The notes beneath the pieces were generated by a model. That model worked only from the letters and a program-made list of their open reading frames with translations, had not been told where the DNA came from and did no database searches. The position numbers and the translations under genes are program-made. A DNA stretch of 51,882 nucleotides from Nanobdellota archaeon. GTDB taxonomy: Archaea; Nanobdellota; Nanobdellia; SCGC-AAA011-G17; UBA489. Below are positions 5,422 to 46,009 of the stretch, in pieces (position 1 is the first letter of the stretch; the number at the start of each line of letters is the position of its first letter). Location: contig JAUYMN010000017.1 in NCBI GenBank assembly GCA_030699455.1, forward strand, positions 1-51,882, in the 5' to 3' direction.

Positions 5422-5805
5422 TTAGTTATTAAAGCTTTTTTGTTCTTCAAGTCTTTCTTGTAAATCTTTGTCTTTAAACATTTCAAATCCAATGTATCCT
5501 GCAAAGATTCTGAATCTGACTGGACCAAGTCCATATGGGCCACTTGCGAGCCAGTGTGGTGTTTTATCTATTTCTGCGCCGACCATTGTTGCCCTATATC
5601 CAGGGGTTATTGTATAATGGCTATCTATGTCTCCTTTTAGTGGTCTTCCGTGTTCATCAAAGAAGAATCTGTAAGCCGATCCCCTCTTTGATCTCCATTC
5701 TATGTATGTTATGTCTGCTGTTTTTTTTCTTGAATAAGTGGTTTTTTTCTCTTCTAAACTCTCTGTGAGCTTCTCTATCTCTGATTTTTTCATTTTTTCC
5801 TCCAA
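5422..5805 (-). CDS. hypothetical protein
   Basis: 127-aa ORF 17 bp upstream of asnS on the same strand; start codon uncertain. Confidence 0.55.
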   Translation of the reverse strand: MEEKMKKSEIEKLTESLEEKKTTYSRKKTADITYIEWRSKRGSAYRFFFDEHGRPLKGDIDSHYTITPGYRATMVGAEIDKTPHWLASGPYGLGPVRFRIFAGYIGFEMFKDKDLQERLEEQKSFNN

Positions 5806-5898
5806 ATGGGTAATATTTTACTAATTTTCTGTTTATTTAAGAAATTATCTTAAAAATATTGGAAAAATTAGCCAAAAATACAAAAATTTAAATATAAT

Positions 5899-42668: not shown

Positions 42669-43745
42669 TTAAAAACTTTTAGAGAAGTGCATTGCTGCAT
42701 TAGCGGGTACTAAGAGAGTTATTTTCTTAACAACCTCTTTTCTGAGCTTAAAACTATCTGCCCATTTGGCATAAGCATTCCAGCCATAAAAACTTTCAAG
42801 TATCTTATCTTTGTTTATTTCTTTATTCTTATATTCCTTAACTTTATTTAGTATGCTTCTAATATTTCTTTTTCTTAAAAGCTTATGATAATAAAAAGTT
42901 CTGAATCCAACAAAATCAATCCCTCTTGAAAGGGAAATTATTCTTGATTTATCTGGGTGTAATTCAATCATTAATTTATCAATTAGAAACTCTTTTATTT
43001 TAGACTCCAAAATTTTTAGCTGTTGTCTTGATTTGTGCAAGATAACAAAATCGTCAACATATCTGATATAATGTTTTACCTTTAATCTATGTTTTACAAA
43101 ATAATCCAGCTCGTTAAGATAGACATTAGCAAAGAATTGTGATGTTAGATTTCCAAGAGGCATTCCTTTTTCAGAAAAACTCTTTTGCTGGATTTTATTT
43201 GAGCCATTCTTCAAAATTTTTTTAATGAGCCAATTGGCATTTTCATCTTTAATCTTTCTTTGGATTATTTTAATTAAAACTTTGTGATTAACTTCTTGAA
43301 AATAATGTTTTATATCTGCTTTGAAACAAAATGCCTCTTTTCTTAGATTGCAGGTCACCTTTCTCTTGAATAAATTAAACCTTTTTAATGCAAATAAATT
43401 TCCTTTTCCTATTCGGTTTGCACAAGAATCGTAAATAAAACTTTTATCAAAAATTGGTTCAATTACTTTAATTAATGCGTGATGCACTACTCTATCTCTG
43501 AATGCAGACTTGCTTATCTTTCTAGTTTTGGGGTCTCTTAGAATAAATATCTTCAATGGCTCTGGATTGTAAGTCTTAGCTTCAAGTTCTTCATGCAACT
43601 TAATCAGATTTTCTTGTAAATTTTCTTCAAATTCAATAACATATTCTTTTTTTGTCTTATGCTTTCTTGCTTTTTTATATGCAAAATAAAGATTTTCCAA
43701 TGAAATAATTTTTAAGTAAATCTCATTACAATCATTTTCATCCAT
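42669..43745 (-). CDS. DGR reverse transcriptase
   Basis: FRDRVVHHAL, SCANRIGKG, KADIKHYF, GMPLGNLTSQFFANVYL (DGR-type SQ motif), YIRYVDDF, IDFVGF; 358 aa with no endonuclease domain. Confidence 0.95.
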   Translation of the reverse strand: MDENDCNEIYLKIISLENLYFAYKKARKHKTKKEYVIEFEENLQENLIKLHEELEAKTYNPEPLKIFILRDPKTRKISKSAFRDRVVHHALIKVIEPIFDKSFIYDSCANRIGKGNLFALKRFNLFKRKVTCNLRKEAFCFKADIKHYFQEVNHKVLIKIIQRKIKDENANWLIKKILKNGSNKIQQKSFSEKGMPLGNLTSQFFANVYLNELDYFVKHRLKVKHYIRYVDDFVILHKSRQQLKILESKIKEFLIDKLMIELHPDKSRIISLSRGIDFVGFRTFYYHKLLRKRNIRSILNKVKEYKNKEINKDKILESFYGWNAYAKWADSFKLRKEVVKKITLLVPANAAMHFSKSF

Positions 43746-43778
43746 TTTATTATTAATCTTAAACCCGGGAAAGCCATT

Positions 43779-43865
43779 CCGCGCACAGCGTTGCCGTAGT
43801 TCAGGTACCTGTTGTTGCCATTAAGCCCAGACCTGTTGTCATCATCAATCCTATGAAGCCACGCC
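43779..43865 (-). repeat. DGR template repeat (TR)
   Basis: 87 nt, 78/87 identical to 44213-44299; conceptual translation AWLHRIDDDNRSGLNGNNRYLNYGNAVR, AAC-rich. Confidence 0.95.
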
Positions 43866-44030
43866 ATGCTATAGCCCTCGTTATCATGTATTCACCAAAG
43901 CTTCTCGCGAGTCGCTTTTGTATTTTATGACTTAAAATAAACAATAATGCCTTGATAAAAGGGCGTGTGACCTTTCCTGCTATTCTCCTTAAATAGCATA
44001 CTGCTAAATTCAAATAGCAATAGGGGTAAT
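43866..44030 (-). ncRNA. putative structured 5' region of the DGR template RNA
   Basis: Consecutive hairpins at 44002-44019, 43978-43998, 43921-43939 and 43897-43918; TTTAAA TATA-like box near 44049-44056. Confidence 0.55.
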
Positions 44031-44061
44031 GTTAGGTGGAAGAATATCTTTAAAAAAATTA

Positions 44062-44808
44062 TTATTTTCTGAAAAAAGTTTCCAAGCCTTTTTCGAAATC
44101 TTTTCTTGCTAATTTCGGAACAAATTGTCTGCTATAATTAGCAATGTCTGTAAGGTTAGGTGTGGAAATTATTGAAACAGTCTCGCCACTTCGTGGCTCG
44201 ACACGACGCACCCCGCGCACAGCGATGCCGTAGTCCAGGCACCCGAGGTTGCCATTAAGCCCAGACCTGTTGCCAACATCAAACCTATGAAGCCACGCCT
44301 GTCTTGCAAAAGGTCTCTTCTCTGGATTAGCTAAATAGACAGGCATTTCTTTTACTCCTGTTTCTTTTAAAAATTCTCCATATTCACCTGCTGACCTTCC
44401 AAAAGCAAAGGCTGTTATTTCATCTTCCTCAAATCTATTTGTAGGTATTGAGCTTGCATCTTTAAATTGAACAGAATTAACCAATGATTCTTCTACCTGT
44501 TCTTGAGTTAAATAAAATTCTTCTCCGTTTCTATTACAATTTGCTGCTTCTTCAGCATTAGCCAGTATTGGGGAGTCTCCTACTAAAAATATTCCTTTTT
44601 TAGAAACATACAAAAATCCTTCTTTTGTACGACTCCCATAATTAGCCACACGAGAACCCTCTCCTTGAGCAATCCTTAGTTCCGCAAATTGCTCTAAAGA
44701 AATAATATTATAACCATTAGCCTCAAGCTCTGCTTTTGCTTCATCGAATGGTTTTTCTACATAAGCTGATTCTATTTCTGTTGGCCTTACATCCCGAATT
44801 ATTGTCAT
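44062..44808 (-). CDS. DGR target (variable) protein, probably CLec-like fold, no signal peptide
   Basis: Contains VR encoding AWLHRFDVGNRSGLNGNLGCLDYGIAVRG, followed by ~50 more residues. Confidence 0.9.
   Translation of the reverse strand: MTIIRDVRPTEIESAYVEKPFDEAKAELEANGYNIISLEQFAELRIAQGEGSRVANYGSRTKEGFLYVSKKGIFLVGDSPILANAEEAANCNRNGEEFYLTQEQVEESLVNSVQFKDASSIPTNRFEEDEITAFAFGRSAGEYGEFLKETGVKEMPVYLANPEKRPFARQAWLHRFDVGNRSGLNGNLGCLDYGIAVRGVRRVEPRSGETVSIISTPNLTDIANYSRQFVPKLARKDFEKGLETFFRK
44180..44202 (-). promoter_or_regulatory. DGR homing hairpin downstream of VR/IMH
   Basis: Minus strand GTC-GA-GCCAC-GAA-GTGGC-GA-GAC, 10 nt after the VR end. Confidence 0.75.
44213..44299 (-). repeat. DGR variable repeat (VR)
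   Basis: 9 substitutions versus TR, all at TR A positions (minus strand), changing 8 codons. Confidence 0.95.
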
Positions 44809-45073
44809 ACTCTTATTTTAAAATTTGAAGTTTATAAATGTTTCTATTATGTTCTTATTTAATAGTGGTAATAAAATAAGGATAAATAACATACCATATT
44901 ATGGGCGACTGCTTCTAACAAGTTTTATTTAGAAGAGTCTTAGTAAAACTTGACATAACAATTAAGGAAACAGCTAATGCAGATAAAATGGAAAAGCTAA
45001 TCTTTGATTCAAATAACCCAATTTAATATTAGAATAGGCTTCAGAAGATAAAGTTAAAAAACACCATTATATT

Positions 45074-45826: not shown

Positions 45827-45856
45827 AACAATTAGAAATGAATTTTTTTCGTTTAG

Positions 45857-45958
45857 GAGCCCGTAGCTCAGTTTGGATAGAGCGTTTGCCTTCTAGCGTG
45901 GGAAAATATTCCTGTGGAAGTCAGCAAAAGGTCGCAGGTTCAAATCCTGTCGGGCTCG
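45857..45958 (+). tRNA. tRNA-Arg(TCT) with 27-nt canonical intron (45896-45922)
   Basis: Acceptor GAGCCCG/CGGGCTC, TAGCTCAGTTTGGATAGAGC D arm, TTTGC-CTTCTA^A-GCAAA, GCAGG-TTCAAAT-CCTGT; BHB with CTTC/GAAG helix and TAG and TCA bulges. Confidence 0.95.
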
Positions 45959-46009
45959 GTTTTTGGAGGATAGGTTAATTTAATATACTACTGCTTCTTT
46001 GATTCTTCC

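Follow-up and report, generated by a model that had tools for sequence, protein, structure and literature searches.

The window analysed in the present study, a stretch of 51,882 nt from a Nanobdellota archaeon (GCA_030699455.1, contig JAUYMN010000017.1, positions 1 to 51,882), carries on its minus strand a diversity-generating retroelement (DGR) that consists of a target gene, a variable repeat (VR) inside that gene, a template repeat (TR) plus a gene for reverse transcriptase (RT). The assembly comprises 770 kb in 28 contigs and is 82.67% complete. An earlier reading of the window from its letters (hereafter, the sequence-only reading) had proposed that this DGR has no gene for the accessory protein Avd, that a multi-hairpin RNA leader with its own TATA box occupies the position of that gene, and that the arrangement represents an undescribed mechanism. 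The present analysis identifies the leader as the catalogued RNA motif RT-16 and suggests, with a probability of roughly 60%, that RT-16 is the cis-priming and stop module of a circularly permuted DGR RNA in which A43968 is the candidate primer. The cassette and its flanks contain the following features.

44808..44062, minus strand: DGR target gene, 248 aa, an open frame with its stop at 44064-44062.
44299..44209, minus strand: VR, inside the 3′ part of the target open reading frame (ORF), from a 91-position alignment with the TR.
44197..44185, minus strand: GC stem with a GAA triloop, 3′ of the VR and within the target ORF, read from the sequence.
44061..43866, minus strand: gap of 196 nt from the target stop to the TR.
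43865..43775, minus strand: TR, 91 nt, including 24 A.
Separating the TR from the RT ATG (43745), minus strand: spacer of 29 nt.
43745..42669, minus strand: DGR RT gene, 358 aa (RVT_1, 78.4 bits).
24 nt beyond the RT gene: leuS (Pfam).
Other flank of the cassette: gene for a PGF-pre-PGF protein (TIGR04213, 67.5 bits).

Both flanking genes are those named in the sequence-only reading, and its gap of about 195 nt is confirmed by the 196 nt found, whereas the spacer between TR and RT, which it had put at 33 nt, is shorter. The TR and VR differ at 11 of the 91 aligned positions, all 11 mismatches fall on TR adenines, and the VR ends in GGGGT where the TR ends in GGAAT. With these adenine-specific differences, an RT of the DGR clade beside the TR and a VR in the 3′ part of the target gene, the window element is a genuine DGR; its TR-RT core without an accessory gene is that of architecture A1. 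The RT aligned end to end with the RT chain of the Bordetella phage DGR (8ub7_A; E 1.9e-42, residues 12-334), and the LGNLTSQFFANVY motif (xLGxLTSQxFANVY) was common to the two proteins. Assignment to the retrons is contradicted by a score of 48.3 bits against retron_St85_RT, the cut-off of which is 235, and by the presence of a TR/VR pair. Neither a second RT nor a second VR was found in a search of the whole assembly, in which the single further copy of the TR was the VR. The target protein matched no Pfam or NCBIfam family, and homologous ORFs of approximately 250 aa sit upstream of the RT in related DPANN loci, indicating an orphan target family.

Run X1, a comparison that rests on assembled contigs, revealed two alternative contig series across the target gene (window 44195-44830), with scattered differences outside the VR too. 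The alternative contig had 14 differences in the VR, 13 of which lay opposite TR adenines (only 24 of the 91 TR positions are A). As far as assembled sequences can indicate, the VR differences fit recent activity of the DGR.

The gap between the target gene and the TR is occupied by a conserved structured RNA and not by a gene, as the sequence-only reading had supposed. A match to the full RT-16 model (Rfam RF03019), above the gathering score, lies 121 nt upstream of the RT ATG, and stops occur in all three frames across RT-16 and the TR in 39 of 40 aligned elements. The comparison sets comprised 61 related genomes (the window's own genome, G000, included), 14 control genomes and 80 further RT loci from named records. 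RT-16 was present in 30 of the 61 related genomes, with 54 matches that all exceeded the cut-off and had the same placement beside an RT as in the window, and in none of the 14 controls; this distribution tracks that of the RT, which was found in 31 of the 61. The 80 loci, the best 80 of more than 592 RT relatives in named records, belonged nearly all to Woesearchaeota, Pacearchaeota, Nanoarchaeota and other DPANN archaea. A core profile searched with nhmmer matched 71 of these 80 loci, and in 61 of the 80 the match lay directly upstream of the RT on the same strand. In about 10 of the 80 (L078, L089, L095, L101, L104, L110, L115, L130 and L142 among them), the unit of RT-16 and TR lies on the strand opposite the RT, in convergent or divergent orientation, which constitutes a second cassette layout within the same RT clade.

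The leader itself is thus not new, having been catalogued in 2017. RT-16 is one of nineteen 'RT' motifs located near RT genes, and the available part of that report assigns no function to it; only RT-10 was linked to a DGR there, and a DGR role for the other RT motifs was speculated (Weinberg et al. 2017, PMC5737381). Other mentions of RT-16 or RF03019 in print were list entries only, one of which notes a sarcin-ricin-like loop in helix P4; the shortened P4 of the window is without this loop, the distal part of P4 present in the Rfam model being missing. The Rfam model ends where the TR begins and therefore does not contain the two helices designated Pt and P0 in the present study, and the 3′ strand of its P1 overlaps the strand that pairs with the TR end. 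RT-10 gave no match at E <= 10 in window 43500-44400. In the literature searched, outside of which lie the supplements of Weinberg et al. 2017 and the paper of Paul et al. 2017, neither a functional reading of RT-16 nor the two long-range helices turned up. The elements of the leader RNA and its promoter are as follows.

44054-44049, minus strand: TATA-like box TTTAAA, read from the sequence, with a hexamer at the equivalent position in relatives.
44027..44024, minus strand: 5′ strand of P0 (ACCC) and putative RNA start, pairing with 43766-43763 in the minimum-free-energy fold.
44024..43866, minus strand: RT-16 RNA (Rfam RF03019; cmscan 74.2 bits, gathering score 50, E 1.7e-11, model positions 1-158 of 158).
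44022..43978, minus strand: P1 region, folded as two 8-bp hairpins or one long hairpin; a single variable hairpin in Rfam.
43977..43968, minus strand: primer-like 5′ strand of Pt (GGAAAGGUCA), helix 2 of the covariation set, with A43968 as the candidate priming adenosine.
43967-43965, minus strand: invariant linker CAC between the 5′ strands of Pt and P2.
43964..43953, minus strand: 5′ strand of P2, stop-duplex-like, covariation helix 3, contained in the Rfam RT-16 structure.
43952..43919, minus strand: P3 region followed by the A-rich AUAAAAUACA (43928-43919), recognized by invariant columns; the A-rich stretch is unpaired in Rfam.
43918..43897, minus strand: P4 hairpin, shortened here, covariation helix 4, with 8 of 8 pairs changed on both sides.
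43886..43874, minus strand: 3′ strand of P2, helix 3, ending 8 nt before the start of TR/VR homology.
43776..43768, minus strand: template-side 3′ strand of Pt (UGGCUUUCC), starting at the last homologous TR bases.
43766..43763, minus strand: 3′ strand of P0 (GGGU), from the fold and helix 1 of the covariation set.

The TATA-like box that the sequence-only reading had assigned to the leader was borne out by the relatives. In about 25 of 39 relatives, P0 is preceded by a TTTWWA hexamer that starts approximately 27-31 nt ahead of it, compared to 2-5 of 39 in windows of equal width elsewhere. From the position of TTTAAA (44054..44049), the RNA is predicted to start near 44027, where P0 begins, 3 nt before the Rfam match. 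In the opposite-strand units of L104 and L115, the 3′ strand of P0 is followed by a T-run at the end of the unit, suggesting that the RNA is a unit of its own. The RNA of the window probably doubles as the leader of the RT mRNA.

Covariation in the upstream regions of the RT homologues lends the leader a defined architecture. An alignment of 40 elements, which opens shortly ahead of the leader and extends as far as the RT start codon, served to count a structure of four helices with 35 pairs. Standard pairs occupied 91.4% of the cells, compared to 70.9% after shuffling (0 of 500 shuffles reached the observed value) and 29.5-42% when the partners were slid by 1-3 columns, and the covariation score was 0.650 against 0.256 for the control. 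The helices are all nested, and 85.9% of cells were paired in P0, 86.6% in Pt, 96.0% in P2 and 96.2% in P4. P2 (10 bp), in which 9 of 10 pairs changed on both sides, and P4, which in most relatives has a longer distal part with an AGUA/GAA loop, are already contained in the Rfam model; Pt and P0 are, on the evidence of the aligned sequences, two long-range helices that are new relative to it. In relatives, P0 is a covarying helix of 8 bp that joins the bases just 5′ of the first hairpin with GCYAGGA-like bases located approximately 10-20 nt before the RT ATG. An unconstrained fold of 44027..43743, the window's own RNA, recovered P0, Pt and P2.

Pt is the helix on which the proposed function turns. 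Its 9 bp pair the RT-16 junction NNNGGGCUA with UAGCCCNNN, the latter beginning at the last bases of the TR, and 7 of the 9 pairs changed on both sides among the 40 elements, while the terminal A of the 5′ strand was invariant in 40 of 40 rows. The six core pairs of Pt were formed in 211 of 240 cells, compared to 191.9 ± 2.5 in shuffled alignments (0 of 10000), a count that took in one mis-parsed row (L014). The pairing was replicated in 37 further non-duplicate elements, in which 292 of 333 cells were paired, compared to 237.4 ± 5.6 after shuffling (0 of 10000); this set was obtained from 45 parsed rows by removal of seven duplicates and one false parse (the first row of L139). Furthermore, the pair at alignment columns 140/441 was U-A in 33 rows, C-G in seven and unpaired in none, and its C-G state requires four changes on the RT tree, at least three of which are forced by strongly supported branches. 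In the 14 loci for which a VR was found, TR/VR homology ends at GGAAU, 1-2 nt into Pt. The Pt duplex, with its invariant terminal A-U pair at the boundary of TR/VR homology, may thus contain a putative priming site.

The individual structures named in the sequence-only reading fared unevenly in this comparison. Its two sibling hairpins appear in the minimum-free-energy fold at 44022-43999 and 43998-43978. The AAAGC/GCUUU stem at 43918-43897 is real and covaries in relatives, but the GNRA tetraloop placed on it is not sustained, as relatives have N-[4-nt loop]-N′ between a conserved GAC and GAA, here U-CGCG-A. The 3′ half of the supposed TATTTTA/TAAAATA hairpin is the invariant A-rich stretch that is unpaired in the Rfam model, and the palindrome GCTATAGC next to the TR is actually a conserved GGCUA motif at the 3′ end of P2. 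The suggestion that a priming segment overlaps the start of the RT gene finds no counterpart in the alignment: no conserved pairing was found there, the strand that covaries with the TR 3′ end belongs to the leader and is 190 nt further upstream, and the conserved 3′ elements end at P0.

In the RNA of the Bordetella phage BPP-1, for which part of the report was available, the spacer downstream of the TR contains a primer strand (spacer positions 47-56) that is paired to the 3′ end of the TR and has the priming A56 as its last nucleotide; a 2-nt linker follows, then an 11-bp duplex formed with a segment immediately upstream of the TR, by which the polymerase is brought to a stop, and after it a short stem-loop and unpaired adenosines (10.1101/2023.10.23.563531). 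The same elements recur in the window RNA in the same order. The 5′ strand of Pt ending in an invariant A corresponds to the primer strand ending in A56, the invariant CAC to the 2-nt linker, P2, whose partner ends 8 nt before the start of homology, to the 11-bp duplex, the P3 hairpin to the phage's short stem-loop and the invariant AUAAAAUACA to the unpaired adenosines. The topology of P2 thus matches that of the BPP-1 stop duplex, pointing to a putative polymerase-stop function. The two systems differ in that the phage has its module in a 140-nt spacer 3′ of the TR and requires Avd, whereas the window has the module on the 5′ side of the TR and a 3′ spacer of only 29 nt, and no Avd was found. 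Furthermore, P0 closes the window RNA where the phage RNA has its Avd-binding stem-loop. The phage RNA consists of the avd end, the TR and the spacer, is the Rfam RT-10 motif and is bound to RT and Avd (10.1101/2023.10.23.563531). The RTs of the two elements are homologous; a long structured 3′ spacer with a priming adenosine, as in RT-10, was not found in the window.

Considering these correspondences, we propose the following scenario for the copying of the TR. The RNA would start just past the TATA-like box, opening with the 5′ strand of P0 and the variable P1 hairpin region; it would continue through the RT-16 core, the TR and the 9-nt strand that pairs back to the junction as Pt, and would end with the 3′ strand of P0, approximately 17 nt before the RT start codon. 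RT-16 would in this way do the job of the spacer that lies downstream of the TR in BPP-1. The pairing of the junction strand NNNGGGCUA (GGAAAGGUCA here) with the TR 3′ end would set A43968 opposite U43776, and the 2′-OH of A43968 could prime cDNA synthesis on A43777. Three nt further along comes P2, which pairs with the stretch immediately preceding the TR and at that point would halt the polymerase. The RNA would thus be a circular permutation of the phage RNA, with the priming and stop module 5′ of the template. A module in this position would explain the 29-nt 3′ spacer without the RT coding region being invoked. The element is probably a compact three-part DGR of a DPANN (Woesearchaeota/Nanoarchaeota) type, consisting of a target gene, one RNA and an RT, with no Avd found. 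We put forward more tentatively, at slightly less than even odds, the further step that a single self-closing, permuted priming RNA with its own promoter lets the RT carry out adenine-mutagenic, self-primed copying without any Avd.

The absence of avd from the cassette, as claimed in the sequence-only reading, extended to the whole assembly. The profiles PF05635 and TIGR02436 gave no matches at E <= 10 across the 82.67% of the genome that is assembled, and a profile built from four-helix-bundle proteins of relatives, slightly weakened by one wrongly chosen ORF (L153), gave a best E of 0.14 among the 4547 open frames of the genome. The cassette contains no ORF of Avd size, and no Pfam family was found for the 70-aa and 51-aa ORFs in the gap. 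With no avd matched in either the cassette or the genome, the element cannot be placed with the Avd-dependent DGRs (BPP-1 type, architecture B). PF05635 was matched in 6 of the 61 related genomes, one of which (G025) has no RT and just one of which has its match within about 2 kb (2.1 kb) of an RT, and in 9 of 50 further RT-bearing genomes. Highly similar PF05635 proteins starting MAR..K.LEIW were observed in a few related genomes, one of them without a DGR RT. Because this family occurs also in a genome without a DGR RT, it does not appear to be tied to DGRs in related archaea. The majority of RT-bearing relatives had no PF05635 match, including assemblies that are 96-99% complete (G030, G047, G032, G033 and G049). 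When ORFs of at least 60 aa were clustered over the 80 loci, the RT was recovered in 79 and several target families were found, with no conserved small neighbour. Among 350 small ORFs near the 80 RTs, the 120 searched against Pfam contained no PF05635, and the other 230 were covered indirectly by the genome-wide searches of 50 of the 80 genomes. The lack of a conserved small neighbour and the few PF05635 matches among relatives together suggest that the absence of Avd is a property of the whole DGR group. The role of Avd, for which the sequence-only reading had proposed RNA structure or a trans-acting factor, could possibly fall to the RT, to the junction of P0 and P1, to a host factor or to a protein that escaped detection.

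DGRs without Avd are already in print, which, with the identity of the RNA, removes the claim that the arrangement is undescribed. According to the available part of the survey by Wu et al. (2018, PMC5758913), 29% of catalogued DGRs have no accessory gene, no distant avd was found for them and Avd-independent homing was proposed; the conservation of avd genes is very poor. Architecture A1 in that survey resembles the window element in lacking an accessory gene and in having the TR directly before the RT, but the part available gives no RNA structure or priming model. Moreover, 90% of its set from the candidate phyla radiation and DPANN has the layout TR-(avd)-RT, which is not so in the clade of the window (Wu et al. 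2018, PMC5758913). The nanoarchaeal (DUSEL4-type) DGRs of Paul et al. (2015, PMC4372165), a named record of which (L131) is among the best 80 of the more than 592 RT relatives, share with the window element an archaeal host, an orphan target of approximately 250 aa, the target-TR-RT layout, the GGGGT/GGAAT difference between the initiation of mutagenic homing site (IMH) and its TR counterpart (IMH*), and a GRA-triloop hairpin in the target ORF after the VR. The available part of that paper describes no structured RNA upstream of the TR, where only small ORFs of Avd-like charge and size are marked. A DPANN DGR with RT-16 and without Avd is an ordinary member of a known group.

The same ordering of primer and template is known outside the DGRs. 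In the msr-msd RNA of retrons, as proposed for the window RNA, one RNA contains both the template and, 5′ of it, the priming nucleotide, and a helix closes the ends of this RNA. Retrons differ from the window DGR in that they prime from a guanosine, have no TR/VR pair and rewrite no gene.

Several observations weigh against RT-16 as a priming and stop module. The 40 sequences that yielded the structure are also those used to count its pairs, and replication on new loci covers Pt alone. P0 is weak in the window, where it has 4 bp, and was clear in two of the four opposite-strand units inspected. Within Pt, the pair at columns 139/442 is standard in only 20 of the 40 elements, the other 20 having mostly C opposite A. 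The VR has GGGG opposite GGAA of the TR in nearly all of the 14 loci, and the GGAA adenines may mark the IMH/IMH* difference and not the first bases copied. P2 has at its 3′ end a second copy of GGGCUA that, by means of G-U pairs, could also bind the TR end and thus act as an alternative or switching partner, and the z-scores of the fold were modest (−1.56 and −2.16). The 17% of the genome that is missing and the poor conservation of Avd proteins leave room for a divergent or unassembled Avd acting in trans. As for recent activity of the element, the alternative haplotype of X1 may be a second strain or a target paralogue, given its differences outside the VR.

Such an Avd, whether encoded in the missing 17%, diverged beyond the reach of the profiles or provided by the host cell (the archaeon is probably episymbiotic), would be used together with an RT-16 that binds the RT-Avd complex. 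The incompleteness of the genome, the poor conservation of avd genes (Wu et al., PMC5758913) and the PF05635 proteins of related genomes (6 of 61 in one set and 9 of 50 in the other), one of them 2.1 kb from an RT, are compatible with this explanation, but we consider it unlikely: the two curated profiles found nothing at E <= 10 and the kin-derived one nothing better than 0.14, most RT-bearing relatives are without a match even where assemblies are 96-99% complete, G025 has PF05635 without an RT, the cassette entered this genus alone, and the available part of Wu et al. (PMC5758913) reports no distant avd for Avd-less DGRs. It is scarcely credible that the gap instead encodes a small, basic, miniature Avd in its 70-aa ORF (44013..43801, pI 11.6, 7.9 kDa). 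This ORF is open and basic, and ORFs of Avd-like pI and size were marked between RT and target in nanoarchaeal DGRs in the available part of Paul et al. (2015, PMC4372165); it starts with TTG, however, overlaps both RT-16 and the TR and matches no family, the longest open stretch across RT-16 and the TR in the 40 elements has a median of 51 aa, and the substitutions are compensatory for RNA helices. The stops in all frames in 39 of these elements led to the rejection of the 70-aa ORF as a hidden gene.

The remaining explanations accept a structured RNA and assign it a different task. RT-16 could be no more than a 5′ leader of the RT mRNA that controls RT expression in cis, for example through attenuation or the binding of a protein, with no part in priming; its position directly upstream of the RT, and on the RT strand, in 61 of 80 loci agrees with this, as does the RT ATG of the window, approximately 17 nt past P0 with no promoter of its own in sight. 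A leader of this kind is very unlikely in view of the approximately 10 of 80 loci that keep RT-16 beside the TR on the strand opposite the RT, two units of which end in a T-run, and of the covariation of RT-16 with the 3′ end of the TR at the very point where TR/VR homology ceases. Alternatively, Pt could insulate or terminate, for example by setting the 3′ boundary of the template or by shielding the RNA, and target DNA or a separate RNA would provide the primer. The function given to the helix is itself an interpretation, the mismatch in the middle of Pt in half of the elements is consistent with a role other than priming, and so is the GGGG kept by the VR opposite GGAA. We regard this explanation as quite unlikely, because the order of elements in the phage RNA is repeated by the invariant terminal A-U pair, the linker of 3 nt and the neighbouring duplex that involves the stretch upstream of the TR. 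The reading of RT-16 as a cis-priming and stop module thus remains the one preferred here.

DGRs are most abundant in ultra-small archaea and bacteria, and the only mechanism worked out, that of the Bordetella phage, needs Avd and a 3′ spacer; neither Avd nor a 3′ priming spacer was found in the window DGR. Primer-like and stop-like helices placed in a catalogued motif bear on how DGRs without Avd start and stop copying. If the proposed scenario is true, RT-16 would gain a function and a mechanism would be supplied for the Avd-less DGRs common in DPANN archaea. A system of two components, RT and RNA, would then also be the smallest DGR to try as a tool for targeted mutagenesis.

Neither the RT nor RT-16 was found in any of eight genomes of the same genus. 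Synteny from leuS to an intron-containing tRNA indicates that the target gene, the RNA and the RT came in together as one unit of approximately 2.1 kb. The tRNA-like sequence, with an apparent intron of approximately 27 nt, lies at window ~45850-45960 on the plus strand, between the PGF-pre-PGF gene and a 636-aa ORF; it was not called by ARAGORN, and genomes of the same genus match it in two blocks (query 5747-5830 and 5858-5897). In many relatives (L003, L006, L009, L010, L012-L018, L024 and others), the contig ends upstream of the RT, at a distance of 50-700 nt. The TR/VR repeat is probably where assemblies break, which would leave DGR targets under-assembled in related genomes.

The TR of some relatives differs from that of the window, which has no insert. 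In 20 of 80 distinct related elements, the TR contains an insert of 18-40 nt that ends 10 nt before GAAU (for example, L007:902-950, L019:1390-1441 and L139:3903-3957). The insert has the form CUCG-AAA-[covarying hairpin]-CGAG-NNN, a 4-bp helix with 3-nt bulges like that of archaeal bulge-helix-bulge introns, and nothing linking such introns with DGRs was found in the literature searched. Canonical bulge-helix-bulge introns are cut after the second base of the bulge. In all eight cases that could be aligned cleanly, the VR was without the insert, the joints fell after the second base of each bulge, and A-to-N differences lay on both sides. Judging from these joints, the tRNA-splicing machinery probably removes the insert from the template RNA ahead of copying.

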